Shown piece by piece: positions 1-32,806 of a stretch of 64,000 nucleotides of DNA. Source of the DNA: Mayamaea pseudoterrestris. Its lineage: Eukaryota. The DNA lies in the NCBI GenBank assembly GCA_027923505.1, contig BROI01000021.1, forward strand, positions 248,001-312,000, in the 5' to 3' direction. Position 1 is the stretch's first letter; every line of letters begins with the position of its first letter. The notes below the pieces were generated by a model. That model saw nothing but the letters and a program-made list of their open reading frames with translations. It did no database searches and was not told the origin of the DNA. Position numbers and translations under genes: made by a program.

Positions 1-483
1 AAGCAATGTTAAAGGTTGCGTTGGATGCGAAGTATTCCGTGTCAAAAATGTCTTGCACAAAGCCAATAGCTCGGACAAGTTTCCCCGGCAGCAGACAAGA
101 ACCGGGAATGATAGATTCACTGCCAGTCATCAACGGCTCACCGAGAAGACTTCGATCAAGCCATGGAATCGAGTCCTTTCACAGTACGAAAGAGCAGGTA
201 GACGGAGTCAGACAGACACCAAAATGTCACTCAGTCAATGATGACAAGCAAAGATTGACGGACGCAATCGGAACATCAAGCTCGTACATAGTATACAGCA
301 ATCAGCAATCCAAGCGGTTTCACTGTCAACCTCTCGCGCAGCACATACTTTTTCATTCGCAAGTTGTTCCCAATCAGTCTTTGTGACGAACATTCCAGAT
401 TCCAGTTTATTCAGCCAGTCACCCTGATCATCAAGACTATTCACTGGAGTAACAATGGGGCCGTTCATGGTCCTTGTCGCCAT
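1..483 (-). CDS. 5' part of a probable MCM complex-binding protein (MCM-BP) homologue, running off the window's left end
   Basis: Exon 1 is 483..349 (45 codons), followed by a GTATG...AAAG intron (348..176). Exon 2 is open to the window edge and reads DSIPWLDRS...LPGKLVRAIGFVQDIFDTEYF, resembling the MCM-BP N-terminal motif (VKFRCMIQDMFDPEFY in animals). Confidence 0.6.
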
Positions 484-623
484 GGTGCAGGACGCAGCTC
501 AGATGCAGGATGCCGCAGCGCTAGCACACGTTGCATTGCATTGCCGAAACGCTCTGCAGTATACATACCGTTCCGACGGGCATCAATCAACGGTGCGACA
601 CATGAATGGATGAGTCATTGTAA

Positions 624-1988
624 ATGACCAGCCGTTTTCAATGTCTTCGCTGCTCATCGACTGCCGATCACCATGATGTATGTGGCAGCTATGGCAGTGA
701 TGGCCTCTTCGGCTTCTTGGACTTGCAATGGAATAACTATACTCACAGTCAGTACTGGATTGACAACCCAAGCAGCGTCATGGTTGCGTCTTTATCGTCT
801 TTGACTGTGAGAGCAGTCTGCATGGTGCTGCTTCCGATACTTGGACTGTTAGTGACGTTCAACATTGAAATCATGCAAAACATTCAGACTCGCTTGACTG
901 TGAACAAAACAAATCAATCGAATTATTATCTGCATTACATCGATCATAACCGAGAGCAACCGCGACCTCGTCATTTACGACTTGTCTTTATGGGTGACAG
1001 CATGACGCGTTACCAATACCTTAGCCTTGCGTACTTTTTGTCCACTGGAATCTGGTTCGAATATGGCGACGACAACGACGAGGATGAAGAGGATCTGCGG
1101 AACAAATCAACAAAAGCTCCACAAAGCTTGAGTGATTCCCGTCGTCGCAACTTCAACCTGATGCAGGCCCACTCTTTTCACAATCCGCTCAAGCCGCACG
1201 ATGATTGGAACGAATTCTTTCGACACTCCAACCAAATGCTTGCACCAAATGAAATCTGCGATTGCGAGCGCAGCGCTGATTACTCTATTGCTGTGGAACG
1301 AAGATACTTTTGGGAGAAGACACTCGACAATAAGCTTGTATACATCAACTTGAACGGCCACGAAGGGACGTCGAACCGTACTGGTTTTTACGGGCGGATG
1401 GATGCGCGTCGAGTCTTCCATGACCTATTCGACGACCAGTTCAAACTGACAAGCGGTTTCGCCTCCAACATTACAGATAGCGCCATAAAGGAGTTGCAGT
1501 GGACCAACATCAAGTCACTAATAAAACAACAATCATTGAAATGGGAGGCATTCTCATGGGGTCAAGTTTTGCAAAGGCATGTAGCAGCTCTGGGCCTTGA
1601 TGATCTTGGTTCCGTTCCAGTTGTTTTCAATGCTGGCCTTCATAAACACAACTTTCCTGATGCAGCAGAAGACCTAATACAGGCACTTAATCAAACAAAC
1701 ATGCATGGTGTATGGAAAACTACAACTTACACCAAGGGCCAATTACTCAAGTCCTCCTCTTTGTCGATTCTTCCTTGCGATGTCACCATGTGCGCCTTGC
1801 TGCCTCGCTGTTTAAACGTGTCCTGGACTTCACTTATAAATCCAGACTTGTATAGCGATCGGCTACATTTTCATGAACCGGTGTATCGAGTCATGAACGA
1901 GGAACTTTTGAATATACTTGGCGTACTACCGAAAACATACCATACGTTGAAGCTTGTCATGGGGCGGCTAGGGGCAATAAAAACATGA
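624..1988 (+). CDS. SGNH/GDSL-fold hydrolase or acyltransferase (PC-esterase/TBL-like), type II membrane protein
   Basis: 454-aa ORF with an N-terminal hydrophobic helix, catalytic block LVFMGDSMTRYQY, VFNAGLH and a C-terminal DxxH (DRLH). The real start may be ATG 780 or 822. Confidence 0.75.
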   Translation: MTSRFQCLRCSSTADHHDVCGSYGSDGLFGFLDLQWNNYTHSQYWIDNPSSVMVASLSSLTVRAVCMVLLPILGLLVTFNIEIMQNIQTRLTVNKTNQSNYYLHYIDHNREQPRPRHLRLVFMGDSMTRYQYLSLAYFLSTGIWFEYGDDNDEDEEDLRNKSTKAPQSLSDSRRRNFNLMQAHSFHNPLKPHDDWNEFFRHSNQMLAPNEICDCERSADYSIAVERRYFWEKTLDNKLVYINLNGHEGTSNRTGFYGRMDARRVFHDLFDDQFKLTSGFASNITDSAIKELQWTNIKSLIKQQSLKWEAFSWGQVLQRHVAALGLDDLGSVPVVFNAGLHKHNFPDAAEDLIQALNQTNMHGVWKTTTYTKGQLLKSSSLSILPCDVTMCALLPRCLNVSWTSLINPDLYSDRLHFHEPVYRVMNEELLNILGVLPKTYHTLKLVMGRLGAIKT

Positions 1989-2114
1989 CAACAGTTAATT
2001 TGTTTTATCTTCTTTATGAGTCTGTTGCCACCCATTTAGCTAGGTAGACAGCAGACTCCAGCTGGTGATTAGCAAGCATTTTCAATTTGCCACACAACGG
2101 TATACCAGTGCTCG

Positions 2115-2545
2115 AGTGGCACCTTCTAGACAGATGACCCTTCAAGCTGCGCTCAAAAGGTATTTCCTTCTTGCCATCACTTAGCTACGTGGATGCCATG
2201 GAGGGATTTCACCACACCAGTTCAAACATATGTGACAAGGGTTTGGCCATGCAAGTGCTTATAGGATCAGTGACACCTTCTAGACAGATGACCCTTTTAG
2301 CAGCACTCAGAAGGTATTTCCTTCTTGCAGTCACTGAGCTATAGTGGTCGGAGGCCACACTTTAGCACCATGATGGCCATGATCTCCCATATATTTCAGG
2401 TTATAGGCAAGCTACAAATGCAAAAGCTGCACCAATCTTATCACAAACTAGCCCTTATGCATAGCCAGCCAAAAATTTACGGAAATGGAATTCAGGGAAT
2501 AGTGGTTGGAGGCCACACTTTAACAACATGAGGACCATGTCACTC
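2115..2545. repeat. Degenerate ~155-158 bp tandem repeat relic on the left flank of the satellite complex
   Basis: caccttctagacagatgaccctt...aggtatttccttcttgc occurs at ~2120 and ~2275. gtggtYggaggccacacttta occurs at ~2344 and ~2502. Confidence 0.75.
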
Positions 2546-2596
2546 ATTGGACATCTGCCCTCCTACATATTCCAGGCAGCTGGTAAGCTTTTAATC

Positions 2597-4372
2597 ATAC
2601 CACTACAATGCCCCGTGCCCTGGCCACCCAACAACCCAATGAGTCAGGCAAAACATGTCCAGAGTGTGCCATTGACATGAGGACGGTCTGACATGGTGCA
2701 AAACGGACTGCCTGGAGGCCTACACTATGGAATGGTCTGCAGGCTGGGGGTGGCCAACACCCCAAATTATGGAATTATACCACTACAATGCCCCGTGCCC
2801 TGGCCACCCAACAACCCAATGAGTCAGGCATAACATGTCCAGGGTGTGCCATTGACATGATGATGGTTGAAAATGGTGCAAAGGGACTTCTGGGAGGCCT
2901 ACACCATGGAATGGTCTGCAGGATGGGTGGCCAACACCCCAAATAATGGAATCACACCACAACAATGCCCCGTGCCCTAGCCACCCAACAACCCAATGAG
3001 TCAGGCAAAACATGTCCAGGGTGTGCCATTGACATGAGGATGGTTTGGAGTGGTGCAAAACAGACTGCCTGGAGGCCTACACCATGGAATGGTCTGCAGA
3101 CTGGGGGTGGCCAACACCCCAAATTATGGAATCATACCACTACAATGCCCCGTGCCCTGGCCCCCCAACAACCCAATGAGTCAGGCAAAACATGTCCAGG
3201 GTGTGCCATTGTCATGAGGATGGTCTGAAATGGTGCAAAACGGACTGCCTGGAGGCCTACCCCATGGAATGGTCTGCAGGATGGGGGTGGCCAACACCCC
3301 TAATTATGGAATCATACCACTACAATGCCCCGTGCCCTGGCCCCCAACAACCCAATGAGTCAGGCAAAACATGTCCAGGGTGTGCCATTGACATGATGAT
3401 GGTTGAAAATGGTGCAAAATGGACTGCCAGGAGGCCTACACCATGGAATGGTCTGCAGGATGGGTGGCCAACACCCCAAATAATGGAATCACACCACAAC
3501 AATGCCCCGTGCCCTAGCCACCCAACAACCCAATGAGTCAGGCAAAACATGTCCAGGGTGTGCCATTGACATGAGGATGGTTTGGAGTGGTGCAAAACAG
3601 ACTGCCTGGAGGCCTACACCATGGAATGGTCTGCAGACTGGGGGTGGCCAACACCCCAAATTATGGAATCATACCACTACAATGCCCCGTGCCCTGGCCA
3701 CCCAACAACCCAATGAGTCAGGCAAAACATGTCCAGGGTGTGCCATTGTCATGAGGATGGTCTGAAATGGTGCAAAACGGACTGCCTGGAGGCCTACCCC
3801 GTGGAATGGTCTGCAGGATGGGGGTGGCCAACACCCCAAATTATGGAATCATACCACTACAATGCCCCGTGCCCTGGCCACCCAACAGCCCAATGAGTCA
3901 GGCAAAACATGTCCAGGGTGTGCCATTGACATGAGGATGGTCTGACATGGTGCACAACGGACTGCCGGGAGGCCTACACCACGGAATGGTCTGCAGACTG
4001 GGGGTGGCCAACACCCCAAATTATGGAATCATACCACTACAATGCCCCGTGCCCTGGCCCCCCAACAACCCAATGAGTCAGGCAAAACATGTCCAGGGTG
4101 TGCCATTGACATGAGGATGGTCTGACATGGTGCAAAACGGACTGCCGGGAGGCCTACACCATGGAATGGTCTGCAGGCTGGGTGTGGCCAACACCCCAAA
4201 TTATGGAATCATACAACTACAATGCCCCATGCCCCGATCACCCAACAACCCAATGAGTCAGGCAAAACATGTCCAGGGTGTGCCATTGACATGAGAATGG
4301 TCTAACATGGTGCAAAACGGACTGCCGGGAGGCCTTCACCACGGAATGGTCTGCAAGATGGGTGTGGCCAAC
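2597..4372. repeat. Satellite family A, 180-bp monomer, ~10 copies
   Basis: Lines 3661, 3841, 4021 and 4201 all begin ttatggaatc atac, giving an exact 180-bp period. The monomer is ...aatgccccgtgccctggccacccaacaacccaatgagtcaggcaaaacatgtccagggtgtgccattgac... Confidence 0.97.
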
Positions 4373-4591
4373 ATAACACCGTTGACGATTTCGCAGTCAA
4401 CGTCTTACCTCCAAAAAGCTCCGATACAGGGTCCTTGGCCACGGTCTGTACAGCTCTTGATGGAGATGGCTCGTCGCATTCTTGTCCTTCACAATCGCAT
4501 ACGATGTATCGCCGCGCCAAAACAATACTGGCTTGAGCAATGGCATCGCATCACAGTACGGCCAGGTACTTTGTCGTCCGCAAGTTCTCCT

Positions 4592-7500
4592 CCAACACCA
4601 CAAGTTGCTTCTTCCCTGTCCCCATGCCTGGCCACCCAAATACCCAATGAGTCCAGGCAAAACATGTAGAGGTATGCCATTGACAGGTATAGTCTCAAAT
4701 GGTGCAAAAAGGACTGCTGAGCTGACACCATAGTGCGGCCTCCACTGTGGGTGGCCAACACCTGAAGTTGCAGATTCTTCCCTGCTCCAACCGCTTCCCT
4801 GCCTGGCCCCCCCAAATCAGGGCGTGGGTTGCCATTTGACAGGTCTGCATAGTCTCAAATGGTGCAAAAGGACCGCCTGGAGAGGCTGACAACATGGAGT
4901 ACGGCCTCCGGGGTATGGCCAACACCACAAGTTGCAGATTCTAATCCAAACGCCCCATGCCCTGGCCACCCAAATACCCAATGAGTCAGGCAAAACATGT
5001 CAGGGATGCCATTGACAGTGCAGAGTCTCAAATGGTGCAAAGGACTGCCTGTAGGCTGACACTATGGGTATGGCCTCCACTGGGGGTATGGCCAACACCG
5101 CAAGTTGCAGATTCTTCCGTGTCAAACACCCCATGCCCAGGCCACCCAAATACCCAATGAGTCAGGCAAAACATGTCCAGGGTATGCAACACCACAAGTT
5201 GCAGATTCTTCCCTGTCCAAGCGCCCCCATGCCCTGGCCACCCAAATACCCAATGAGTCAGGCAAAACATGTCCAGGGTATGCCATTGACAGGTGCATAG
5301 TCTCAGATCTGTAGGGACTGCCTGGAGGCTGACAACATGGGTACAGCCTCCACTGTGGGTATGGCCAACACCACAAGTTGCCCAGATTCATCCCTGTCAA
5401 AAACGCCCCATGCCTATTTTTTAACCCAAGAGTCCAGGCAAAACATGTCCAGGATGCCATTGACAGGTGCAGAGTCTCAAATGGTGCAAAAGGACTGCCT
5501 GGAGGCTGAAAACATGGAATGCGGCCTCCACTGTGGGTGTGGCCAACTTCACCACAAGTTNCAGATTCTTCCATGTCAAGCGCCCCATGCCCTGGCCACC
5601 CAAATACCCAATGAGTCAGGCAAAACATGTCAGGGTATGCCATTGACAGGTGCATAGTCTCAAATGGTGCAAAAGGACTGCCTGGAGGCTGACACCATGT
5701 CGGCCTCCACTGTGGCATAGCCAACACCACAAGTTGCAGATTCTTCTCTGTCAAACGCCCCATGCCCTGGCCACCCAAATACCCAATGAGTCAGGCAAAA
5801 CATGTCCAGGGTATGCCATTGACAGGTGCATAGTCTCAAATGGTGAAAAAAAAGCCTGCCTGGAGGCTGACACCATGGTGACGGCCTCCACTGTGGAGTA
5901 TGGCCAACACCACAAGTTGCAGGTCTTCCTGTCAAGCCTGACCCCATGCCCTGGCCACCCAAATACCCAATGAGTCAGGCAAAAGTATGTCAGGGTATGC
6001 CATTGACAGGTGCATAGTCTCAAATGGTGCAAAAGGACTGCCTGGAGGCTGACAACATGGGTCTGACACTCCACTGTGGAGTGGCCAGCATACAAGTTGC
6101 AGATTCATCTGTCAAGCGCCCTGCCCTGGCCACCCAAATACCCAATGAGTCAATTAAAACATGTAGGTGATGCCATTGACAGGTGCAGAGTCTCAAATGG
6201 TGCAAAAAGGACTGCCTGGAGGCTGACAACATGGGTACCGCCTCCTCTGTGGGTATGGCCAACACCACAAGTTGCAGATTCTTCCCTGTCCGCCCCCATG
6301 CCCTGGCCACCCAAATGCCAATGAGTCCAGGCAAAACATGTAGGGTATGCCATTGACAGGTGCATAGTTTACAAATGGTGCAAAAAGGACTGCCTGGAGG
6401 CTGACACCATGGGTACGGCCTCCACCAATGGAGCGGACCAACACCACAAGTTGCAGATTCATCCCTGTCAAACGCCCCATGCCCTGGCCACCCAAATACC
6501 CAATGAGTCAGGCAAAACATGTCAAGGGTAGGCCATTGACAGGTGCATAGTCTCAAATGGTGCAAAAAGGACTGCCTGGAGGCTGACAACATGGGTACGG
6601 CCTACTGTGGGTATGGCCAGCACCACAAGTTGCAGATTCTTCTGTCCAAACGCCCCATGCCTGGCCACCCAAATACCCAATGAGTCAGGCAAAACATGTA
6701 GGAGTTATGCCATTGACAGGTGCATAGTCTCAGAAATGGTGCAAGGACTGCCTGGAGGCTGACACCATGGATGCGGCCTACTGGGTATGGCCAACACCTG
6801 AAGTTGCAGATTCTTCCCTGTCAAACGCCCCATGCCCTGGCCACCCAAATACCCAATGAGTCAGGCAAAACATGTCAGGGTATGCCATTGACAGGTGCAT
6901 AGTCTCAAATGGTGCAAAAAGGACTGCCTGGAGGCTGACAACATGTCACGGCCTCCACTGTGGGTATGGCCAACACCACAAGTTGCAGATTCATCTGTCA
7001 AATGCCCCTTCTGGCCACCCAAATACCCAATGATTCAGGCAGAACATGTCCAGGGGATGCCTTTGACAGGTGCATAGTCTCAAATGGTGCAAAGGACTGC
7101 CTGGAGGCTGACAACATGGTACGGCCTCCACTGTGGGTATAAAACACCACAAGTTGCAGATTCTTCTGTCAAACGCCCTGCCTGGCCGCCCAAATACCCA
7201 ATGAGTCAGGCAAAACATGTCCAGGGGATGCCATTGACAGGTGCATAGTCTCAAATGGTGCAAAAAGGACTGCCTGGGGCTGACACCATGGAGTACACTC
7301 CACTGTGGGCGTATTACAAGTTGCAGATTCTTCCCTGTCAAACACCCATGCCCTGGCCACCCAAATACCCAATGAGTCAGGCAAAACATGTCCAGGGTAT
7401 GCCATTGACAGGTGCATAGTCTCAAATGGTGCAAGGACTGCCTGGAGGCTGACAACATGGAGTACGGCCTCCACTGTGGGTATGGCCCAGCACCACAAGT

Positions 7501-10130
7501 TGCAGCTTCATCTGTCAAACGCCCCATGCCCTGGCCACCCAAATACCCAATGAGTCAGGCAAAACATGTAGGTGCCATTGACAGGTGCAGAGTCTCAAAT
7601 GGTGCAAGACTGCCTGGAGGCTGACAACATGGGTACACCGCCTCCTCTGTGGGTATAGCCAGCACCACAAGTTGCAGATTCTTCTCTGTCAAACGCCCCA
7701 TGCCCTGGCCACCCAAATACCCAATGAGTCAGGCAAAACATGTCAGGGGATGCCATTGACAGATTGCATAGTCTCAAATGGTGCAAAAAGGACTGCCTGG
7801 AGGCTGACACCATGGAGTACGGCCTCCACTGTGGAATATCCAACACCACAAGTTGCAGATTCTTCTGTCAAGCCCCATGCCTAATCCAAACCAAGAGTCA
7901 GGCAAAACATGTCAAGGGTAGGCCATTGACAGGTGCATAGTCTCAAATGGTGCAAGGACTGCCTGGAGGCTGACAACATGGAGTACGGCCTCCACTGTGG
8001 GTATGGCCAACCCCACAAGTTGCAGATTCTTCTGTCAAACGCCCCATGCCCTGGCCACCCAAAATACCCAATGAGTCAGGCAAAACATGTCCGGGTATGC
8101 CATTGACAGGTGCATAGTCTCAAATGGGACTGCCTGGAGGCTGACACCATGGTACGGCCTCCACTGTGAGTATGGCCAACACCACAAGTTGCAGATTCTT
8201 CCGCCCATGCCCTGGCCACCCAAATACCCAATGAGTCAGGCAAAACATGTCCAGGGTATGCCATTGACAGGTGCATAGTCTCAAATGGTGCAAAGGACTG
8301 CCCAGAGGCTGACAACATGGAGTACGGCCTCCACTGTGGGTATGGCCAACACCACAGGTGCAGATTCATCCCTGTCAAATGCCCCATGCCCTGGCCACCC
8401 AAATACCCAATGAGTCAGGCATAACATGTCCAGGGTATGCCATTGACAGATGCAGAGTCTCAAATGGTGCAAAAAGGACTGCCTGGAGGCTGACAACATG
8501 AATACGGCCTCCACTGTGGGTATGGCCAACACCACAAGTTGCAGATTCTTCTCTGTCAAACGCCCCATGCCCTGGCCACCCAAATACCCAATGAGTCAGG
8601 CAAAACATGTCCAGGGATGCCATTGACAGGTGCATAGTCTCAAATGGTGCAAAAGGACTGCCTGGAGGCTGACAACATGGGTACGGCCTCCACTGTGGGT
8701 ATGGCCAACACCACAAATTGCAGATTCATCCCTGTCAAACGCCCCATGCCCTGGCCACCCAAATACAATGAGTCCAGGCAAAACATGTCCAGGATGCCAT
8801 TGACAGTGCAAGTCTCAATCTGGAAAGGACTGCCTGGTGACAACATGGAGTACGGCCTCCACTGTGGGTATGTCCAACACCACAAGTTGCATATTCTTCC
8901 TGTCAAGCGCCCCATGCCCTGGCCACTTAAATACCAATGAGTCAGGCAAAACATGTCAGGGGATGCCATTGACAGGTGCAGAGTCTCTCAAATGGTGCAA
9001 GGACTGCCCTGGAGGCTGACAACATGGGTGCCGGCCTCCACTGTGGGTATGGCCAACACCACAAGTTGCAGATTCTTCCCTCAAGCGCCCCATGCCCACA
9101 ATCCAAAACCCATGAGTCAGGCAAAACATGTCCAGGGTAAGCCATTGACAGGTGCATAGTCTCAAATGGTGCAAAAGGACTGCCTGGAAGGCTAACACCA
9201 TAGATGCCGGCCTCCACTGTGTGGGTATAGCCAACACCACAGAGAAGTGCAGATTCTTCTGTCAAGCGCCCCATGCCCTGGCCACCCAAATACCCAAGGC
9301 AAAACATGTCCAGGGGATGCCATTGACAGGTGCATAGTCTCAAATAGTTGCAAGGACTGCCTGGAGGCTGACAACATAGATACGGCCTCCCACTGTGGTA
9401 TGGCCAGCACCACAAGTTGCCAGATTCTTCCCTGTCAAACGCCCCATGCCCTGGCCACCCAAATACCCAATGAGTCATACCAAAACATGTCCAGGGTAGG
9501 CCATTGACAGGTGCATAGTCTCAAATGGTGCAAGGACTGCCTGGAGGCTGACAACATGGTACGGCCTCCACTGTGGGTACCATAGCCAACACCACAAGTT
9601 GCAGATTCTTCCCTGTCAAACCCCCATGCCCTGGCCACCCAAATACCCAATGAGTCAGGCAAACATGTCCAGGGTAGGCCATTGACAGGTGCATAGTCTC
9701 AAATGGTGCAAAGGACTGCCTGGAGGCTAACACCATGGGGTACGGCCTCCACTGTGGGTATGGCCAGCACCACAAGTTGCAGATTCTTCCCTGTCAAACG
9801 CCTTATGCCCTGGCCACCCAAATACCCAATGAGTCAGGCAAAACATGTCAGGGTGCCATTGACAGATGCATAGTCTCGAATGGTGCGAAAAGGCCGGCCT
9901 GGAGGCTGACAACATGGGTACGGCCCCCACTGTGGGTATGGCCAACACCACAAGTTGCAGATTCTTCCCTGTCAAACGCCCCATGTCTGGCCACCCAAAT
10001 ACCCAATGAGTCATACCAAGAACATGTCCAGGGTAGGCCATTGACAGGTGCATAGTCTCAAATGGTGCAAAAAGGACTGCCTGGAGGCTGACAACATGGT
10101 TCGGCCTCCACTGTGGTATGGCCAACACTA
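4592..10130. repeat. Satellite family A', ~180-bp monomer related to A, ~31 indel-rich copies
   Basis: Consensus caaatacccaatgagtcaggcaaaacatgtccagggtatgccattgacaggtgcatagtctcaaatggtgcaaaaaggactgcctggaggctgacaacatgg...gttgcagattcttccctgtcaaacgccccatgccctggccacc. The period is 181 bp between 8401 and 8582. Confidence 0.95.
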
Positions 10131-10149
10131 CAGCAAGTCCTGTAGGTGC

Positions 10150-13100
10150 ACCATTTACACCAGAACGGTGCCAAACATCAACGTCATTATTCAGGCTGCG
10201 CTACAAGAGTTGGTGGTGTCTCAGGGATGGCAATGATATTGGTGACAACTTGTCACCATTCTCAACCCGCTGATGCCGTGATATCAAACTGGTGCCCAAA
10301 TTACACCAGAATGGTGCCAACGTCATTATTCAGGTTTACAAAGATGGTAGGGGTTGGCTGGTAGCTCCCAGGGGATGGTGAATGGAGAGAAATTGTCACC
10401 AGTCTTAACCGTGATGCGTGAAAATTCAACGCCCCTACAGCAGGCCATTTATACACCCAAATGACACCAGAATGGTGCCAGCATCTTCAGGTGTAGAAGG
10501 GTGATGGACTTTGGTGACAACTTGTCACAGTCTCAGCTGCAGATGTCGTGACATTCAAATTAACCCACAGTAGGCAGTCGTAAGATCCAAATGACACCCA
10601 GAATGGTGCCAACTCACTTATACAACTTGCGCTACAAGATGGTTGGCTAGTGGGGGACGGAGTTTTGTCTCGGGAAAAGTGGTGAGTAGTTCTCACCAGT
10701 CTCATCCCACAGATGCCGTGACATTCAAACGCCTTTACAGCAGGCCATGTTTAAACCCATATAACACCAGAATGGTGCCAACATCATTGTTCAGGCTGCG
10801 CTACAAGATGGCAGGTCATTAGTGTCTCAGGATGGCAAAGAATTGGTGACAACTTGTCACCAGTCTCAGCTGCAGATGCCGTGATTATTCGAACGCCCCA
10901 CAGCAGGGGCCATGTATACACCCAATGACATGTGTGAATGGTGCCAACATCATCATTCAGGTGCTACAAGAGGGTATGCCTGGCTAGTGTCTCAGGGGAC
11001 GGAAAACGACAATTGTTTACATTGCTCGGCAGATGTGCGGAACAAACGCCCCACAGCAGGTTAACACCAATTGAAAACTGGAATGGTGCATATTATTCAG
11101 GTGCGCCACAAGATGGTATTGCTATGTCTCGTAGGAGCAATGATATTGGTGACAACTTGTCACCAGTCTCAGCTCTGCGGATGCTGTGTCATTCAAACGC
11201 CCCAGCAGGCATAATAACCAAATGACACCAGTTGCCAACATCATTATTCAGGCTGCGCCAAGAGATGGTGTCCGTGTCTCAGGGGACAGCAATGATACGT
11301 GAAACTTGTCACCAGTCTCAGCTTCAGATGTGACATTCAAACAATACAGAGGCATAAGGGAAGACAAATGACACAGAATGGTGCCAAACATCATTATTCA
11401 GGCTGCGCTACAAGCTGGTATGCACAACTCTGTCACCAGCCCCAGCTTGGGCGGATGCCGGGAGATTCAAACGTACAGCAGGCCAAGAATATACCCAAAT
11501 GACACCAAATTGGTGCCAACATCATTATTCAGGCTGCGTACAAGAGGTTGCTGGCTTGTGTCTCAGGGGACAGACGGTATTGGTGACAAATCTGTCACCA
11601 GTCTCAGCCCGCGTGACTCAAATTCAGAGGATGTCGAACAAAAAAGGAGCCAAACATTATTTAGGTGCGTAAAGAGTGGAGTCGTCTCAGGGGACAGATA
11701 GAGGTGAAAGTCACATTCAGATGCGTGAATTCAAACCACAGAGGCATATACCCAAATGATACCAGAATGGTGCCAACATCATTATTCAGGCTGCGCTACA
11801 AGATGGAATGCCTGGCTAGTGTCTCTTCAGGGGACGGATGATTTTGGTGACAACTTGTCACCAGTCTCAGCCAGCAGATGCTGTGACATTCAAACGCCCC
11901 TACAGCAGGCCACAATATACACCCAAATGACACCACAGAATGGTGCCAAATATCATTATTCAGGCTGCGCCACAAGCTGGTCTGCCTGGCTAGTGTCTCA
12001 GGGGACAGCAATGATATTGGTGACAACTTGTCACCAGTCTCGCCGGATGCCGTGACATTCAAATCGCCCCTACAGCAGGCCACAGTGAATATACCCAAAA
12101 GACACCAGAAGGTGCCAACATCATAATTAGTGCGCAACAAGATGGTATGCCTGGCTAGTGTCTCAGGGGACGGAAGATATTGGTGACAACTTGTCACCAG
12201 TCTCAGCCACAGATGCCGGGACATTCAAATGCCTACAGAGGCTGGGGATACACCCCAAAGGACACCAGAATGGTGCCAACATCATTATTCAGGCTGCGAG
12301 CTGGGATGTGTCTCAGGTGACGGGAATGATATTGGTGACAGCTTGTCACCAGTCTCAGCCTGCAGATGCCTGTGACATTCAAACGCCCCTACAGCAGGCC
12401 AGATAACCCAAATGACACCAGAATGGTGCCAACACATTATTCAGGCTGCACTACAAGATGGTATGCCTGGCTAGTGTCTCAGGGGACGGCAATGATATTG
12501 GTGACAACTTGTCACCAGTCTCAAGCTGCAGATGCTGTGACATTCAAACGCCCCTACAGCAGGCCATGTATACCCAAATGACACCAGAATGGTGCCAACA
12601 TCATTATTCAGGCTGCACTACAAGATGGTATGCCTGGCTAGTGTCTCAGGGGACAGCAATGATATTGGTGACAACTTGTCACCAGTCTCAGCCTGCAGAT
12701 GCCGTGACATTCAAACCCCCCTACAGCAAGCCATGTACACCAAATGACACCAGAATGGTGCCAACATCAATATTCATGCTGCGCAACAAGATAGTATGCC
12801 TGGCTAGTGTCTCAGGGGACGACAATGATATTGGTGACAACTTGTCACCAGTCTCAGCCTCGCAGATGCCGTGCATTCAAAGCCCTAACACCTGCTTCTG
12901 ACACCGATTTCGGTGCCAACTCCTCATTCAAAAGCTCCGCTACGGTATCCTTGGCTAGTGTCTTCAGTGGAGAGACGGCCGCGAATAGTCTTGGTCGCCA
13001 CACACGAAACGACTTGTCACCCGTCTCAACCTGCAGTCTATGCCGTGAGCTTCCAAAACGCCTCTACAGCAGACCATGGATATACACCCAAATGACACCA

Positions 13101-16100
13101 GAATGGTGCCAACATCATATTCAGACTATCGCTCACAAGATGGTATGCCACTGGCTAGTGTCTCAGGGGACAGCAATGATATGGTGACAACTTGTCACAG
13201 TCTCAGCCCGCAGATGCCGTGACATTCAAACACCCCTACAGCAGGCCATGTATCCCAATTGACACCAGAAGGTGCTAACATCTATTATTCAGGCTGCGCT
13301 ACAAGATGGCATATGCCTGGCAGTGTCTCAGGGGCACGGCAATGATATTGGTGACAACTTGTCACCAGTCTCAGCCTGCAGATGCCGTGACATTCAAACG
13401 CCCTACAGCAGGCCTGTAGTACTCCCAAATGACACCAGAATGGTGCCAACATCATTAATCAGGCGGCGCTACAATATAGTATGCCTGCCTAGTGTCTCAG
13501 TGGACGGCAATGATATTGTGAACAACTTGTCACCAGTCTCAGCCAGCAGATGCCATGACATTCAAACGCCCCTACAGCAGGCCATGTATACACCCAATTG
13601 ACACCAGAATGGTGCCAACATCAATTATTCCAGGCTACGCTACAAGATGGCATGCCTGGCTAGTGTCTCAGGGGACGGCAATGATTTTGGTGACAACTTG
13701 TCACCAGTCTCAGCCTGCAGATGCCGTGACATTCAAACGTCCCTACAGCAGGCCATATACTCCCAAATGACACCCAGAATGGTCCAATATCTTTGTTCAG
13801 GCTGCGCTACAAGATGGTATGCCTGGCAAGATGATCTCAGGGGACGGCAATGATATTGATGACAACTTGTCACCAGTTTCAGCCGTAGATCTGTGACATT
13901 CAAACACCCCTACAGCAGGCCAGTGACTATAACCCAAATGATCCACCAGAATGGTTGCCAACATCATTATTCAGGCTGCGCCACAAGATGTTATGCCTGG
14001 CTAGTGTCTCAGGGGACGGCAATGATAATGGTGACAACTTGTCACCAGTCTCAGCCTGCAGATGTCGTGACATTCAAACGCCCTACAGCAGGCCATGTAT
14101 TACACCCAAATGACACAGAATGGTGCCAACATCATCATTCAGGCTGCGCTACAAGATGGTATGCCTGGCTAGTGTCTCAGGGGACCAATGAATTGGTGAC
14201 AACTTGTCACCAGTCTCAGCCTGCAAGATGCCGTGACATTCAAACGCCCCATCAGCAGGCCATGTATACACCCAAATGACACCAGAATGGTGCTAACATC
14301 ATTATTCAGGCGCGCTACAAGATGGTTTGCCACTGGCTAGTGTCTACCAGGGGACGGCAATGATATTGGTGACAACTTGTCACCAGTCTCAGCCTGCAGA
14401 TGCCGTGACATTCAAACGCCCCTACAGCAGGCCATGTATACACCCAAATGACACCAGAATGGTGCCAACATCATTATTCAGGCTGCGCTACAAGATGGTA
14501 TGCCTGGCTAGTGTCTCAGGGGACAGCAATGATATTGGTGACAACTTGTCACCAGTCTCAGCCTGCAGATGCCGTGACATTCAAACGCCCCATCAGCAGG
14601 CCATGTATACACCCAAATGACACCAGAATGGTGCCAACATCATTATTCAGGCTGCGCTACAAGATGGTATGCCTGGCTAGTGTCTCAGGGGACGGCAATG
14701 ATATTGGTGACAACTTGTCACCAGTCTCAGCCTGCAGATGCCGTGACATTCAAACGCCCCTACAGCAGGCCATGCATACACCAAAAGACACCAGAATGGT
14801 GCCAACATCATTATTCAGGCTGCGCTACAAGATGGTATGCCTGGCTAGTGTCTCAGGGGACGGCAATGATATTGGTGACAACTTGTCACCAGTCTCAGCC
14901 TGCAGATGCCGTGACATTCAAACGCCCCTACAGCAGGCCATGTATACACCCAAATGACACCAGAATGGTGCCAACATCATTATTCAGGCTGCGCTACAAG
15001 ATGGTATGCCTGGCTAGTGTCTCAGGGGACGGCAATGATATTGGTGACAACTTGTCACCAGTCTCAGCCTGCAGATGCCGTGACATTCAAACGCCCCTAC
15101 AGCAGGCCATGTATACACCCAACTGACACCAGAATGGTGCCAACATCATTATTCAGGCTGCGCTACAAGATGGTATGCCTGGCTAGTGTCTTCCAGCAAT
15201 GATATTGGTGACAACTTGTCACCAGTCTCAGCCTGCAGATGCCGTGACATTCAAACGCCCCTACAGCAGGCCATGAATACACCCAAATGACACCAGAATG
15301 GTGCCAACATCATTATTCAGGCTGCGCTACAAGATGGTATTCCTGGCTAGTGTCTCAGGGGACGGCAATCATATTGGTGACAACTTGTCACCAGTTTCAG
15401 CCTGCAGATGCCGTGACATTCAAACAACCCACAGCAGGCCATGTATACACCCAAATGACACCAGAATGGTGCCAACATCATTTATCAGGCTGCGCTACAA
15501 GATGGTATGCCTGGCTAGTGTCTCAGGGGACGGCAATGATATTGGTGACAACTTGTCACCAGTCTCAGCCTGCAGATGCCGTGACATTCAAACGCCCCTA
15601 CAGCAGGCCATGTATACACCCAAATGACACCAGAATGGTGCCAACATCATCATTCAGGCTGCGCTACAAGATGGTATGCCTGGCTAGTGTCTCAGGGGAC
15701 GGCAATGATATTGGTGACAACTTGTCACCAGTCTCAGCCTGCAGATGCCGTGACATTCAAACGCCCCTACAGCAGGCCATGTATACACCCAAATGACACC
15801 AGAATGGTGCCAACATCATTATTCAGGCTGCGCCACAAGATGGTATGCCTGGCTAGTGTCTCAGGGGACGGCAATGATATTGGTGACAACTTGTCACCAG
15901 TCTCAGCCTGCAGATGCCGTGACATTCAAACGCCCCTACAGCAGGCCATGTATACACCCAAATGACACCAGAATGGTGCCAACATCATTATTCAGGCTGC
16001 GCTACAAGATGGTATGCCTGGCTAGTGTCTCAGGGGACGGCAATGATATTGGTGACAACTTGTCACCAGTCTCAGCCTGCAGATGCCGTGACATTCAATA

Positions 16101-19100
16101 AACACCTACAGCAGGCCATGTATACAACCAAATGATACCAGAATGGTGCCAACATCATTATTCAGGCTGCGCTACAAGATGGTATGCCTGGCTAGTGTCT
16201 CAGGGGACGGCAATGATATTGGTGACAACTTGTCACCAGTCTCAGCCTGCAGATGCCGTGACATTCAAACGCCCCTACAGCAGGCCATGTATACACCCAA
16301 ATGACACCAGAATGGTGCCAACATCATTATTCAGGCTGCGCTACAAGATGGTATGCCTGGCTAGTGTCTCAGGGGACGGCAATGATATTGGTGACAACTT
16401 GTCACCAGTCTCAGCCTGCAGATGCCGTGACATTCAAACGCCCCTACAGCAGGCCATGTATACACCCAAATGACACCAGAATGGTGCCAACATCATTATT
16501 CAGGCTGCGCTACAAGATGGTATGCCTGGCTAGTGTCTCAGGGGACGGCAATGATATTGGTGACAACTTGTCACCAGTCTCAGCCTGCAGATGCCGTGAC
16601 ATTCAAACGCCCTTCAGCAGGCCATGTATACACCCAAATGACACCAGAATGGTGCCAACATCATTATTCAGGCTGCGCTACAAGATGGTATGCCTGGCTA
16701 GTGTCTCAGGGGACGGCAATGATATTGGTGACAACTTGTCACCAGTCTCAGCCCGCAGATGCCGTGACATTCAAACGCCCCTACAGCAGGCCATGTATAC
16801 ACCCAAATGACACCAGAATGGTGCCAACATCATCATTCAGGCTGCGCTACAAGATGGTATGCCTGGCTAGTGTCTCAGGGGACGGCAATGATATTGGTGA
16901 CAACTTGTCACCAGTCTCAGCCTGCAGATGCCGTGACATTCAAACGCCCCTACAGCAGGCCATGTATACACCCAAATGACACCAGAATGGTGCCAACATC
17001 ATTATTCAGGCTGCGCTACAAGATGGTATGCCTGGCTAGTGTCTCAGGGGACGGCAATGATATTGGTGACAACTTGTCACCAGTCTCAGCCTGCAGATGC
17101 CGTGACATTCAAACACCCCTACAGCAGGCCATGTATACACCCAAATGACACCAGAATGGTGCCAACATCATTATTCAGGCTGCGCTACAAGATGGTATGC
17201 CTGGCTAGTGTCTCAGGGGATGGCAATGATATTGGTGACAACTTGTCACCAGTCTCAGCCTGCAGATGCCGTGACATTCAAACGCCCCTACAGCAGGCCA
17301 TGTATACACCCAAATGACACCAGAATGGTGCCAACATCATTATTCAGGCTGCGCTACAAGATGGTATGCCTGGCTAGTGTCTCAGGGGACGGCAATGATA
17401 TTGGTGACAACTTGTCACCAGTCTCAGCCCGCAGATGCCGTGACATTCAAACGCCCCTACAGCAGGCCATGTATACACCCAAATGACACCAGAATGGTGC
17501 CAACATCATTATTCAGGCTGCGCTACAAGATGGTATGCCTGGCTAGTGTCTCAGGGGATGGCAATGATATTGGTGACAACTTGTCACCAGTCTCAGCCTG
17601 CAGATGCCGTGACATTCAAACGCCCCTACAGCAGGCCATGTATACACCCAAATGACACCAGAATGGTGCCAACATCATTATTCAGGCTGCGCTACAAGAT
17701 GGTATGCCTGGCTAGTGTCTCAGGGGACGGCAATGATATTGGTGACAACTTGTCACCAGTCTCAGCCCGCAGATGCTGTGACATTCAAACGCCCCTACAG
17801 CAGGCCATGTAGACGCCCAAAAGACACCAGAATGGTGCCAACATCATTATTCAGGCTGCGCTACAAGATGGTATGCCTGGCTAGTGTCTCAGGGGACGGC
17901 AATGATATTGGTGACAACTTGTCACCAGTCTCAGCCTGCAGATGCCGTGACATTCAAACGCCCCTACAGCAGGCCATGTATACACCCAAATGACACCAGA
18001 ATGGTGCCAACATCATTATTCAGGCTGCGCTACAAGATGGTATGCCTGGCTAGTGTCTCAGGGGACGGCAATGATATTGGTGACAACTTGTCACCAGTCT
18101 CAGCCTGCAGATGCCGTGACATTCAAACGCCCCTACAGCAGGCCATGTATACACCCAAATGACACCAGAATGGTGCCAACATCATTATTCAGGCTGCGCT
18201 ACAAGATGGTATGCCTGGCTAGTGTCTCAGGGGACGGCAATGATATTGGTGACAACTTGTCACCAGTCTCAGCCTGCAGATGCCGTGACATTCAAACACC
18301 CCTACAGCAGGCCACGTATACGCCCAAATAACACCAGAATGGTGCCAACATCATTATTCAGGCTGCGCTACAAGATGGATTGCCTGGCTAGTGTCTCAGG
18401 GGACGGCAATGATATTGGTGACAACTTGTCACCAGTCTCAGCCTGCAGATGCCATGACATTCAAACGCCCTACAGCAGGCCATGTATACACCCAAATGAC
18501 ACCAGAATGGTGCCAACATCATTATTCAGGCTGCGCTACAAGATGGTATGCCTGGCTAGTGTCTCAGGGGACGGCAATGATATTGGTGACAACTTGTCAC
18601 CAGTCTCAGCCTGCAGATGCCGTGACATTCAAACGCCCCTACAGCAGGCCATGTATACACCCAAATGACACCAGAATGGTGCCAACATCATTATTCAGGC
18701 TGCGCTACAAGATGGTATGCCTGGCTAGTGTCTCAGGGGACGGCAATGATATTGGTGACAACTTGTCACCAGTCTCAGCCTGCAGATGCCGTGACATTCA
18801 AACGCCCCTACAGCAGGCCATGTATACACCCAAATGACACCAGAATGTTGCCAACATCATTATTCAGGCTGCGCTACAAGATGGTATGCCTGGCTAGTGT
18901 CTCAGGGGACGGCAATGATATTGGTGACAACTTGTCACCAGTCTCTTCAGGCTGCAGATGCCGTGACATTCAAACGCCCCTACAGCAGGCCATGTATACA
19001 CCCAAATGACACCAGAATGGTGCCAACATCATCATTCAGGCTGCGCTACAAGATGGTATGCCTGGCTAGTGTCTCAGGGGACGGCAATGATATTGGTGAC

Positions 19101-21553
19101 AACTTGTCACCAGTCTCAGCCTGCAGATGCCGTGACATTCAAACGCCCCTACAGCAGGCCATGTATACACCCAAATGACACCAGAATGGTGCCAACATCA
19201 TCATTCAGGCTGCGCTACAAGATGGTATGCCTGGCTAGTGTCTCAGGGGATGGCAATGATATTGGTGACAACTTGTCACCAGTCTCAGCCCGCAGATGCC
19301 GTGACATTCAAACGCCCCTACAGCAGGCCATGTATACACCCAAATGACACCAGAATGGTGCCAACATCATTATTCAGGCTGCGCTACAAGATGGTATGCC
19401 TGGCTAGTGTCTCAGGGGACGGCAATGATATTGGTGACAACTTGTCACCAGTCTCAGCCTGCAGATGCCCTGGCATTCAAAACGCACCTCCAGCAGGCCA
19501 TGTATATACCCAAATGACACCAGAATGGTGCTAACATCATTATTCAGGCTGCGCTACAAGATGGTATGCCTGGCTAGTGTCTCAGGGGACGGCAATGATA
19601 TTGGTGACAACTTGTCACCAGTCTCAGCCTGCAGATGCCGTGACATTCAAACGCCCCTACAGCAGGCCATGTATACACCCAAATGACACCAGAATGGTGC
19701 CAACATCATTATTCAGGCTGCGCTACAAGATGGTATGCCTGGCTAGTGTCTCAGGGGACGGCAATGATATTGGTGACAACTTGTCACCAGTCTCAGCCCG
19801 CGGATGCCGTGACATTCAAACGCCCCTACAGCAGGCCATGTATACACCCAAATGACACCAGAATGGTGCCAACATCATCATTCAGGCTGCGCTACAAGAT
19901 GGTATGCCTGGCTAGTGTCTCAGGGGACGGCAATGATATTGGTGACAACTTGTCACCAGTCTCAGCCTGCGGATGCCGTGACATTCAAACGCCCCTACAG
20001 CAGGCTATGTATACACCCAAATGACACCAGAATGGTGCCAACATCATCATTCAGGCTGCGCTACAAGATGGTATGCCTGGCTAGTGTCTCAGGGGACGGC
20101 AATGATATTGGTGACAACTTGTCACCAGTCTCAGCCAGCAGATGCCGTGACATTCAAACGCCCCTACAGCAGGCCACATATACACCCAAATGACACCAGA
20201 ATGGTGCCAACATCATTATTCAGGCTGCGCTACAAGATGGTATGCCTGGCTAGTGTCTCAGGGGACGGCAATGATATTGGTGACAACTTGTCACCAGTCT
20301 CAGCCTGCAGATGCCGTGACATTCAAACGCCCCTACAGCAGGCCATGTATACACCCAAATGACACCAGAATGGTGCCAACATCATATTTCAGGCTGAGCA
20401 ACAAGATGGTATGCCTGGCTAGTGTCTCAGGGGACGGCAATGATATTGGTGACAACTTGTCACCAGTCTCAGCAGACCCCCGCAGTGCCAACTCGCGGCC
20501 CCCTCGTGACATTCAAACGCCCCTACAGCAGGCCATGAATATACCCAAAAGACACCAGAATGGTGCCAACATCATCATTCAGGCTGCGCTACAAGATGGT
20601 ATGCCTGGCTAGTGTCTCAGGGGACGGCAATGATATTGGTGACAACTTGTCACCAGTCTCAGCCTGCAGATGCCGTGACATTCAAACGCCCCTACAGCAG
20701 GCTATGTATATACCCAAATGACACCAGATTGGTGCCAACGTCATCATTCAGGCTGTGCTACAAGGGGGTATGCCTGGCTAGTGTCTCAGGGGACGGCAAT
20801 GATATTGGTGACAACTTGTCACCAGTCTCAGCCCGCGGATGCCGTGACATTCAAACGCCCCTAGAGCAGGCCATGAATATACCCAAATGACACCAGAATG
20901 GTGCCAACATCATCATTCAGGCTGCGCTACAAGATGGTATGCCTGGCTAGTGTCTCAGGGGACGGCAATGAATTTGGTGACAACTTGTCACCAGTCTCAA
21001 CCTGCAGATGCCGTGACATTCAAACGCCCCTACAGCAGGCTATGTATACACCCAATTGACACCAGAATGGTGCCAACATCATTATTCAGGCTGTGCTACA
21101 AGGGGGTATGCCTGGCTAGTGTCTCAGGGGACAGCAATGATATTGGTGACAACTTGTCACCAGTCTCAGCCCGCAGATGCCATGACATTCAAACGCCCCT
21201 ACAGCAGGCCATGAATATACCCAAAAGACACCAGAATGGTGCCAACATCATCATTCAGGCTGTACTACAAGTGGGTATGCCTGGCTAGTGTCTCAGGAGA
21301 CGGCAATGATATTGGTGACAACTTGTCACCAGTTTTAGCCTACGGATGCTGTGACATTCAAACGCCCCTAGAGCAGGCCATGAATTTACCCAAATGACAC
21401 CAGAATGGTGCCAACATCATCATTCAGGCTGCGCTACAAGATGGTATGCCTGGCTAGTGTCTCAGGGGACGGTAATGATATTGGTGACAACTTGTCACCA
21501 GTCTCAGCCTGCAGATGCCGTGACATTCAAATGCCCCTTCAGCAGGCCATGTA
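10150..21553. repeat. Satellite family B, 169-bp monomer, ~67 copies, with a near-identical core at ~14350-20460
   Basis: Monomer aaatgacaccagaatggtgccaacatcattattcaggctgcgctacaagatggtatgcctggctagtgtctcaggggacggcaatgatattggtgacaacttgtcaccagtctcagcctgcagatgccgtgacattcaaacgcccctacagcaggccatgtatacaccc (169 nt by count). ORF-track starts recur every 169 bp (16132, 16301, 16470). Confidence 0.98.
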
Positions 21554-21810
21554 GGTCAAGAGTGATTTGGCCAGTTTTAAATTGTTCTTCCCAAACGCCT
21601 TCACTTGTTCTGCTATCAGCTCATTATACCGTTCAATTTCACAGTCTAGTATGCTCAAAGCGCCACTGTTATAGTGACTACGAGTAGTAGGTGCATGCTT
21701 CACTTGCGATGTCGAGGCCCTAGAACCTCTTACAGCAAGCTGTGTTCTCGAATCAGCTATTGCTGGCCGGGACACAATATCTTCAGCCTCTGTATTGTCA
21801 TCAGTAGACT

Positions 21811-22310
21811 GCAATGTGATTGGTGACAACTTGTCACCAGTCTCAGCCAGCAGATGCCGTAATGTTCAAATGCCCATACCTAGAGCCATGTAATATGCCC
21901 AAATCAAGCCAGAATGGTGCTAACATCCTTTCAGGTGCGCTACAAGTAAATTTGACTGGCTGGTCCCTCAGTTGTCTGCAATGTGAATGGTGAGAAGTTC
22001 TCACCAGTCTCAGCCAGCAGTTGCCTTGACATTCAAATGCCCGTACATCAAGTCATGCATACTCTCAAAATGCACAAGACTTAGGTCAACATCATTATTC
22101 AGGCTGTGCTATAAGTTGGTATGCCTGACCGGTGTCACAGTAGCTGCAATGTGACTGTTCTCACCAGTCTCAGCTGTTGGCAGCCTTGGCATTCACTGCC
22201 ATCAGCATGCATAATTAGAGCCATATATATAAATGCCCAGTTCACATAAGAATGATGCCAAACCCATTTTAAAGCATGCTTTACAAGATTTAATGCCTGG
22301 CTACCGGTAG
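21811..22310. repeat. Three increasingly degenerate satellite B monomers (right-flank relic)
   Basis: gcaatgtga...tcaccagtctcagc recurs at 21811, 21978 and 22146 (period 167-168 bp), followed by diverged agaatggtgc/caggctg/atgcctgg motifs. Confidence 0.9.
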
Positions 22311-22544: not shown

Positions 22545-23167
22545 ATGTCCATATCATGCAGAGTTGGCGTTCGTTTACGATCGGCCATGTCAGGATGCCG
22601 ATGCTTCCGGGCGCAACAACGATGCTTCTCAGAGTGGGGTCAGCGAGGGTATGATATTACCAGCGACTTGTTGTCGTTTGGTGATCGACCCAAAACTGTT
22701 CTGCAGGTGCGTACATGCGTAGACCTATATTGTTGACAACAACGGGTGAAGCTTATACAGACACACATTCGACTGTCTATCGACAGGCCTATGCTCCAAC
22801 AGGATTCGATGTTTTAAACTTGGTCAAAAGAGTTGACCCAAACGAACAAGCCGAGTCTGGGACACTTCACATGCATGGCAGCATCATTGCGTTTCCGTTT
22901 GGCAGCTTTCTTTGGAACATTACTGGGCCAAAAGACGTGACACTCGAATCGTTGGCGCCCATAATGTTGCACCGACCCAAGATAGAATATCTTTTCATCG
23001 GATGTAACGAATCTATAGACCGAAAAGAGATTGATCGGATACAGGCTGCCATGCCTGGACTTGTGGTGGAAAAAATGATGATATCGAACGCCATGGGCAC
23101 GTTTAATATTTTGAATGCCGAAGATCGGCAGGTATGTGCAGCATTAGTTCTGGATCCTAACGACTAG
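22545..23167 (+). CDS. NDUFAF3: NDUFAF3/Mth938-like (DUF498) mitochondrial complex I assembly factor
   Basis: Exon 1 (22545..22706) carries an Arg-rich presequence. Intron 22707..22786 (GTGCGT...ACAG). Exon 2 has GSIIAFP..FLW, IEYLFIGC and EKMMISNAMGTFNILNAEDRQVCAAL. Confidence 0.85.
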
Positions 23168-28037: not shown

Positions 28038-28287
28038 GGTGAAAGTTGGAGGTTGTTCGGTGCAGTATCGCGAGAAACATGATCGAGTCGTTGGGCTCGC
28101 GCCGATCTTTACTTGAGGATCGGGTTTTCCTGCAGCGCGGCGGCGCGCGCGCCGTTTCTTTCGTCGCTTCGTCTCGACCTTCATTATTGCCGACCTTTCC
28201 AAACACCTTTCTGTCAGATAAGTCGACGAACAAGCTATAAAGAGGGAAGGCAAGGAGTAAACTGCGTCACTGGTAACTTCCGACAGC

Positions 28288-32052: not shown

Positions 32053-32806
32053 GATAGTATTCGTTTCGTGCGGTTTGATGCAAGCTCGGATTTGTGAGAT
32101 GAAAGTGAGAAGCGAATGGATTCAAGCATCACGTCTGAAACTTCCCCGTGGATTGAATAGACTCTTCCACGTGTATCATTGTCCGTTTTCCACGTGGAGC
32201 CAACGATGTCAGCTGAAGCAATGTATGGACTGTGGAACAACGAGTATACAGTAGTCCAGCTGAAAGTGCGACCCATGCATTCATTATCTAGCTAACGAGT
32301 CGCAGCCAAGCAACGTCGCACCTAAGGCAAACATGACATAGCTAACTTGCACATGGTAGGTCTTTCGGCGAACACGAGTTATCGTAGATCGAAGAGTCAC
32401 TCTGACGTGCCAGCTGGTTTCATCCACCAATCGATCGAAGACTGGAGATTGAAGATGCGAGATTACCGATGCTGATCAGATGTATTTGGAGAACCTTGAG
32501 CCATCTGCGGAAATTCCGCGTGACCGAATGGCCAGCTGACACATATGGCTTCCATTGTAGGGTGCGATTAAACCCTTGGCGTGGAGTCGAGGTATTTTTC
32601 CACTTATGCCTTGCCACTCCGTTGCGCCAGAGCGGCCAGCAAGTCACGTCACTCGTCGTCAGTCGACAGACCTTCTTAGATTTCGCCTCCACCCGTGGAG
32701 TTGGGCATCGAATATCACAAAAACGAACAGCGAGCAGGTGGTCCTTTCATGTCCTTCATCCACAACTTTCACCATTATCTTCCTTCAACGCCAAACTTCC
32801 TCAACC

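Follow-up and report, generated by a model that had tools for sequence, protein, structure and literature searches.

Within a 64,000-nucleotide stretch of the diatom Mayamaea pseudoterrestris (contig BROI01000021.1 of assembly GCA_027923505.1, positions 248,001 to 312,000 of the forward strand; hereafter the window, from whose first letter all coordinates are counted), we found that a gene-flanked block of about 20 kb is real satellite DNA, an unbroken field of tandem repeats that runs in one orientation throughout from approximately 2115 to 22303. It shows all the hallmarks of satellite DNA: head-to-tail units within the ~100-400-bp range, high copy number beyond one locus, absence of coding function, and concerted evolution. 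The reading that we favour, at slightly less than even confidence, is that the block would be methylated satellite heterochromatin to which we assign no sequence-specific cellular role; we infer that it is homogenised by unequal exchange and is not itself the kinetochore site.

Tandem Repeats Finder, BLAST with single monomers and nhmmer family profiles agreed on the extent of the field. The nhmmer profiles gave 163 matches in the 64-kb window, 0/163 of them outside 2000-22400; together with BLAST they placed plus-strand monomers of three families, which we call A (10 monomers), B (33 matches) and C (73 matches). Tandem Repeats Finder reported 2593-4373 with period 180 (9.9 copies, 92% matches), 5180-10132 with period 359/179, and 11746/12308-21553 with period 338/169 (54.6 copies of 169). 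From left to right, the four families with units of ~155-180 bp succeed each other as D relics, A, an A/B junction, B and C:

2115-2592, plus strand: relic units of family D, seen as repeat pairs 2115-2187/2269-2341 and 2341-2381/2499-2539.
2593-4373, plus strand: satellite A, 10 monomers of 180 bp (177-180), neighbours 86-97% alike.
4374-4619, plus strand: A/B junction of ~247 bp, whose right half is a degenerate B-like copy.
4621-10132, plus strand: satellite B, 33 nhmmer matches of ~176-179 bp, mean pairwise identity ~0.87.
10126-14341, plus strand: left diverged layers of satellite C, identity rising from ~0.65-0.75 to ~0.95 towards the core.
14342-20424, plus strand: homogenised core of C, ~36 monomers of 169 bp, of which most share 97-100% identity and a few share less.
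16221-16237, no strand: an example of the 17-bp dyad GGTGACAA-C-TTGTCACC, within one of the two best-conserved stretches of C.
20422-21553, plus strand: right diverged layer of C, identity 0.84-0.94, with one 193-bp variant unit.
21554-22303, plus strand: relic copies of C, 65-80% alike, which include a compensated variant of the dyad.

Along C, the mean identities of successive 12-monomer blocks were, in order, 0.73, 0.80, 0.85, 0.93, 0.96, 0.985, 0.98, 0.974, 0.96 and 0.91, so that the core holds block means of 0.96-0.985 over ~6 kb; this contrast between core (0.985) and edges (0.73), together with that between A and B (~0.80), is the mark of concerted evolution. The consensus sequences of A and B are ~80% alike (alignment score 182, against 16 +/- 2.5 for shuffles) and, judged by this alignment, are one superfamily; C showed no relation to A or B on either strand (score 18-19, against ~16 for shuffles). 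In A we observed a higher-order unit of 3 monomers (537-540 bp), present about three times, with trimers 97.0% alike between 2593-3129 and 3130-3666 and 98.1% alike between 2773-3309 and 3310-3846. No such order was evident in B or in the C core, where no lag from 1 to 8 monomers was favoured; the Tandem Repeats Finder periods of 359 and 338 are therefore scoring ties, not higher-order repeats.

An earlier note on this DNA, made from the letters alone, had described a gene-free 20-kb block of 180-, ~180- and 169-bp monomers with a near-identical core, diverged outer layers and relic copies on both flanks, all of which is borne out: by the three search methods for the monomers, by the gradient of block means for the layering, and by C relics on the right and D relics on the left. 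Its figure of roughly 50% GC (guanine plus cytosine) agrees with the 0.48-0.54 per kb that we measured, the lowest 100-bp value inside the block being 40%, and its claim of higher-order repeats holds for A and fails for B and C.

All that remains of family D here is two or three relic units to the left of A, with two repeat pairs spaced 154 and 158 bp and their copies 88% alike (2115-2539). In the A/B junction, the part at 4483-4620 aligned to the B consensus with a score of 56 (z = 4.4), and none of the other satellite families scored above background there. The only ambiguous base of the 64-kb window, a single N, lies at 5561 inside the B array, perhaps at a spot where collapsed or heterozygous repeat copies brought polishing into conflict.

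The arrays are non-coding. None of the six array open reading frames (ORFs) matched Pfam (0/6), the B-array ORF had no relatives among 307 candidates, and the C-array ORF had only two, both of them translations of similar repeats. Since the C period of 169 is not a multiple of three, ORFs of 169 amino acids merely read through three monomers in three frames and then end. We accordingly rejected a coding repeat protein on these grounds, the missing Pfam matches, the B-array ORF without relatives and the frame shifts of C, and likewise rejected arrays of 5S, small nuclear RNA or other RNA genes, as no Rfam family reached threshold anywhere in the window.

To gauge abundance, we used the word depth of contigs from four public sequencing runs (X1, X2, X4 and X19) on window positions 1-14340, a range that ends before the C core and the right junction. 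In X1, bins in the single-copy flank had depths of 147-175 and the 25 satellite bins had summed depths of 58,892-1,207,225; 148,415 of its 555,133 contigs (27%) were placed on this stretch. X19, from a different study, gave 4.6-8.5 in the flank and 6,748-207,116 in the satellite bins, with 92,374/560,787 contigs (16%) placed. The organism is present in both runs, as flank contigs matched with 0-1 differences. The ratio of satellite to flank depth is thus ~360-7,400 in X1 and ~1,000-31,000 in X19, or, as orders of magnitude, ~10^2.5 to 10^4.5 overall. Single-place maxima in X1 reached 2,247,451 for C (place 13684) and 3,354,094 for B (place 6816), which are ~14,000 and ~20,000 times the flank if every genome copy is taken as piled on one place. 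Roughly estimated, the genome would thus have no fewer than ~14,000 C and ~20,000 A/B monomers. With 73 C and 43 A/B monomers in the window, the block would hold at most about 0.5% of the genome's copies, a rough estimate from X1. Even D, at places within 2130-2206, had a summed depth of ~10,000-430,000 in X1 against a flank of ~164, and is itself a high-copy satellite elsewhere in the genome.

A second line of evidence came from the C-array ORF, which matched an M. pseudoterrestris hypothetical protein encoded on a 917,834-bp contig (53% identity over 57% of the query). This protein is a visibly repeated C-like translation, and the window's own contig is 669,208 bp long, so a C-like array occurs on at least one other large contig. 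The earlier note had proposed the block as a satellite centromere and had named arrays unique to this locus as evidence against that idea; by the run depths and the second contig the satellites are not unique, and the idea is not refuted on this count. The presence of the same families in thousands of copies elsewhere indicates that the 20 kb in the window represents only a small part of a megabase-sized satellite compartment, and may itself be collapsed.

Runs X2 and X4, which belong to the study of X1 and carry the labels of other organisms, also showed satellite depth, with a flank of 0 in X2 and of ~2.7-2.8-fold at 0 differences in X4. We rejected conservation across species as the explanation: trace flank depth at 0 differences points to carry-over between libraries, whose traces a very high-copy satellite makes visible. 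One 1,207-nt contig of X2 matched a 103-bp piece of the A/B junction (4374-4476) with 0 differences, the remainder of the contig being unmatched; this junction sequence may occur in another context. Of the sampled words, 0.13-0.24 were present in each of 14 soil, rhizosphere or litter metagenomes, values in which a few repeat words count many times and which carry no inference on habitat or spread.

The dinucleotide content of the arrays sets them apart from the DNA around them. Observed/expected CpG was 0.18 in A, 0.16 in B and 0.38 in C, against 1.09 in 41.6 kb of flank; TpG (1.86) and CpA (1.60) were raised in the arrays relative to the flanks (1.15 and 1.18), and GpC was not depleted. Across 60 distinct C monomers, transitions occupied 0.088-0.091 of the cells at consensus CpG sites, against 0.019-0.028 at other C/G sites; at the single consensus CpG of B the transition fraction was 0.275 on the C side, and several TG/CA sites of the C consensus are still CG in 2-10 copies. 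CpG depletion in three families, together with the excess of CpG transitions, is most simply read as long-standing cytosine methylation of the arrays, and on this simplest reading the arrays would be silent methylated heterochromatin beside unmethylated genes. DNA methylation in diatoms targets repeats.

In the history that we propose, at least four families, D, A, B and C, would have grown into head-to-tail arrays at a single site with ordinary genes around it; the middles of the arrays would be kept alike by unequal exchange and gene conversion among their copies while the edges decay, and the arrays would form a silent, methylated block of heterochromatin. The lack of a gene-poor or transposon-rich border speaks for this account: genes lie ~125 bp to the left and ~410 bp to the right. 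Several observations weigh against it. Several unrelated high-copy families side by side at a gene-flanked site are more typical of a specialised chromosomal domain, such as a centromere, than of amplification that is local and neutral. Two better-conserved blocks in each monomer, with the compensated dyad of C, hint at a bound factor. Because the dinucleotide content of an array reflects one amplified monomer, the CpG depletion counts as three independent cases, one per family, and not as 19 kb of separate sequence; the per-site transition counts are counts of copies, not of independent events. Finally, the abundance is an order of magnitude and not a count, because summed contig depth is not copy number and a contig that fits several monomers may have been counted at each place.

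Two stretches of C are the best conserved, also among the 27 diverged copies that lie beyond the core: one surrounds the dyad, and the other, at model columns 108-127, mismatches least of all the 20-column windows. To the dyad stretch belongs the 20-mer TTGGTGACAACTTGTCACCA, which has 56 copies and is commoner than any other 20-mer in the C region, and the 17-bp dyad itself is intact in 56/66 aligned C copies. In two relic copies, at 10680 and 21984, which lie on opposite sides of the C field, a C-to-G change of the left arm is matched by a G-to-C change of the right arm, so that the dyad is complete again (8/8) in 21984 and stands at 7/8 in 10680; these matched changes may be a single old variant. 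Of the remaining non-intact dyads, seven are changed in or next to one arm only and one (11007) has decayed beyond recognition. In A and B the best-kept stretch is a 24-bp box containing TGAGTCA. The conserved boxes were significant in a permutation test, a result that we treat only as a hint, the mismatch rate at monomer ends being inflated by truncated matches. The C dyad with its compensated variant hints at a putative dimeric factor bound there and, if the arrays were kinetochore DNA, could be the putative binding site of a CENP-B-like factor.

Two further ideas about the monomers were rejected. Excess single-strand folding or cruciform potential of whole monomers was not seen, as the monomers fold no better than shuffles (z = -0.46, +1.17 and -0.87). 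Two metagenome loci that matched the best-conserved 22-mer of C were treated as chance matches; they cover only the dyad region (27-55 model positions, E ~2e-5) and match no A/B profile.

We wondered whether the block could instead be a regional centromere of satellite type, with CENH3 nucleosomes on the C core (or on A or B) and one such layered block per chromosome; we consider this possible but rather unlikely, and hold in the same doubt the accompanying mechanism, in which new variants would expand in mid-array and push older layers outwards. It would account for families that are high-copy genome-wide, with a C-like repeat on another large M. pseudoterrestris contig, and for the gathering of several unrelated families, a young core with older layers, at one gene-flanked site, a co-location that suggests a special chromosomal domain. 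The monomers are nucleosome-sized, the block has genes to its left and right, no run of at least three telomere units occurs in the window, and among the conserved boxes is a 17-bp dyad of which one compensated variant exists. In monomer size, uniform orientation, layering by age and high abundance the block does resemble satellite centromeres, though layers of this sort are not peculiar to centromeres: in theory, unequal exchange alone is enough to produce them in any array. The features that we did not find were a higher-order repeat in the C core, the one higher-order repeat being confined to the small A array, and gene-poor, transposon-bearing borders, the genes standing within 0.1-0.6 kb of the repeats. 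Higher-order repeats in the active core are typical of primates and not universal. Also unfavourable are the folding of the monomers as single strands, no better than that of shuffles, and the share of the genome's copies held by these 20 kb, at most ~0.5%, so that the locus may be a minor or collapsed array.

The known centromeres of pennate diatoms speak against a satellite type as well. In the portions of the sources available to us, those of Phaeodactylum tricornutum, mapped by chromatin immunoprecipitation sequencing (ChIP-seq) of CENP-A, are peaks of 2-5 kb, each with 500 bp below 33% GC, marked by ~10 or more 100-bp boxes of at most 32% GC in 3 kb and not composed of repeats (10.1101/096016), and those of Fistulifera solaris, predicted and subjected to an episome test, are likewise short, low in GC and not repeat-based (10.1101/2021.11.10.468027). 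We looked for an element of this kind in the 64-kb window and found none: the lowest 500-bp GC is 42.4%, and boxes of at most 32% GC number 4/1,279, never more than 2 in 3 kb and all outside the block, which is moreover entirely tandem repeat where the P. tricornutum centromeres are not. No low-GC element therefore competes with the block inside the window, but the window is only 64 kb of a 669-kb contig, the rest of which could hold one. The block resembles the described P. tricornutum and F. solaris sites in its pennate diatom host and in its intergenic position, closely flanked by genes in a compact genome; it differs from them in being all tandem repeat, at 51-54% GC and with a lowest 100-bp GC of 40%.

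Two other explanations concern the surroundings and the assembly of the block rather than its function. A satellite field near a chromosome end, as found beside telomeres in brown and green algae, seems to us very improbable. Subtelomeric satellites are, in the excerpted literature, the commonest satellites of related algae (for example the 98-bp repeat of Ectocarpus), and the known DNA to the left of the block amounts to ~2 kb of window and ~5 kb of a run contig, by which the genome continues for at least 4,974 bp beyond the window. Against it stand the ordinary genes on both sides and the lack of any run of at least three telomere units in the window; within the block (2100-22310) we counted 0 TTAGGG and 2 CCCTAA hexamers, where ~5 per strand are expected by chance, so the monomers are without the telomere-like motifs of the Ectocarpus repeat. 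That the local picture is partly a product of assembly, with the C core collapsed or two gene-rich flanks falsely joined through shared satellite, is unlikely, if less so than a position near a chromosome end. The ~6 kb of monomers with block-mean identity of 0.96-0.985, the part most exposed to collapse, would be difficult to bridge, no more than roughly 0.5% of the estimated copies fall within the window, a single N stands inside B at 5561, and the Nanopore read N50 of the published assembly is given in the accessible text as 8.6 kb, shorter than the block. Yet the left junction between unique DNA and repeat lies on a 1,738-nt short-read contig of run X1 that matches 482-2219 with 0 differences; the smooth, two-sided identity gradient of C fits a real array and not a chimeric join; and the diverged monomers of A, B and outer C differ enough to be assembled. 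This explanation overlaps with the others, including methylated heterochromatin, which we continue to prefer.

The centromeric satellites CEN180 of Arabidopsis and alpha satellite of humans have ~170-180-bp monomers in one-orientation arrays of high copy, with a homogenised centre, diverged outer layers and conserved boxes. The block shares with them the ~170-180-bp head-to-tail arrays of one orientation, the homogenised centre with relics outside, the high copy number and the conserved monomer boxes. It differs in being assembled at 20 kb, not hundreds of kilobases to megabases; in having a higher-order repeat in one small sub-array only and two unrelated families side by side; and in having genes within 0.1-0.6 kb and no transposon-rich pericentromere.

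Among stramenopiles, the satellites PpSat1 and PpSat2 of Phytophthora parasitica are a close parallel: in the part of the paper available, a centromere role was proposed for them from abundance alone, without proof (PMC7290008). The block shares with them, as far as that text goes, the standing of stramenopile satellites of unassigned function whose arrays of ~20-25 kb limit assembly, and with PpSat2 the gene-rich surroundings; unlike PpSat1, which is described there as lying in transposon-rich, gene-poor DNA beside telomere-like motifs, it has none of these around it. Partial texts describe the centromeres of Ectocarpus as regions of the ECR retrotransposon with only 3.5% tandem repeats (PMC11541908), and those of Phytophthora sojae as transposon-rich (PMC7082073). 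Like the block, these mapped or predicted centromeres are, in those accounts, non-coding, repeat-bearing and regional; they are built of retrotransposons, unlike the block, in or beside which we found no transposon domain.

In the literature that we searched (open-access papers, without preprint supplements), neither abundant satellite DNA nor a satellite centromere was described for a diatom. Viewed as satellite DNA, the block belongs to a known kind; were it a centromere, its type would be new for diatoms and, among the stramenopile centromeres compared, for stramenopiles. The published M. pseudoterrestris assembly, as the accessible part of its description states, comprises 30.6 Mb in 41 Nanopore contigs, with 0 satellites and 2.26 Mb of unclassified repeats. 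If the rough abundance is true, megabases of nucleosome-sized satellites lie hidden in a compact diatom genome of ~30 Mb and would have escaped standard assembly, k-mer sizing and repeat annotation alike; genome-size estimates, assembly completeness and epigenome work would be affected in a proposed freshwater model diatom. If the block were a centromere, there would have been a switch between short, low-GC unique DNA (as in Phaeodactylum) and satellite arrays within one diatom order. The block also offers a cheap and concrete means of asking whether every diatom centromere is of the Phaeodactylum type, which bears on the design of artificial chromosomes for diatoms.

The DNA on either side of the block holds ordinary, densely packed genes, and two of them border it directly:

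624-1988, plus strand: left flanking ORF of 454 amino acids, an ordinary eukaryotic gene with a single-copy depth of 147-175 in run X1.
22715-23167, plus strand: right flanking gene of the DUF498 family, which starts ~410 bp after the last C relic.

The left ORF has no match in Pfam; its nearest protein cluster is a diatom hypothetical protein (score 0.93), and it ends ~125 bp short of the first D relic, with the A array ~600 bp away. The earlier note's description of very gene-dense surroundings was sound: 22 of the 29 flank ORFs of at least 150 amino acids match Pfam, all of them in cellular families, among which are aspartyl-tRNA synthetase, HSP20, the ATP synthase gamma subunit, a PTEN-like phosphatase and PAP-fibrillin. 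Transposon domains were found in none of the 29 flank ORFs and none of the six array ORFs. The diatom host that the note had assumed is supported by the aspartyl-tRNA synthetase, whose named relatives are Seminavis robusta (73%) and Phaeodactylum tricornutum (74% over 94%), then Epithemia and Nitzschia, with further relatives reaching 88-90% among the best 120 matches; judged by this gene, the host is a raphid pennate diatom other than P. tricornutum.

The right flank also holds a few other features. A PTEN-like gene extends over two adjacent minus-strand ORFs (25729-28331), with the phosphatase motif at 27111-28331 and the PTEN C2 domain at 25729-27003, and is probably one gene with a short intron. 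Short-chain dehydrogenase domains are similarly split over the minus-strand ORFs 45882-47189 and 44979-45845, with another copy beginning at 63478-63999; these may be an intron-bearing gene and its paralogue. An isolated 143-bp direct duplication at 54815-55100 (2.0 copies, 95% alike), unrelated to the satellites, overlaps by ~70 bp the 3' end of a 751-amino-acid ORF at 52627-54882. Two HSP20 genes stand head to head at 31180-32052 (minus strand) and 32576-33577 (plus strand), and the ~520 bp between them may be a shared heat-shock promoter region.

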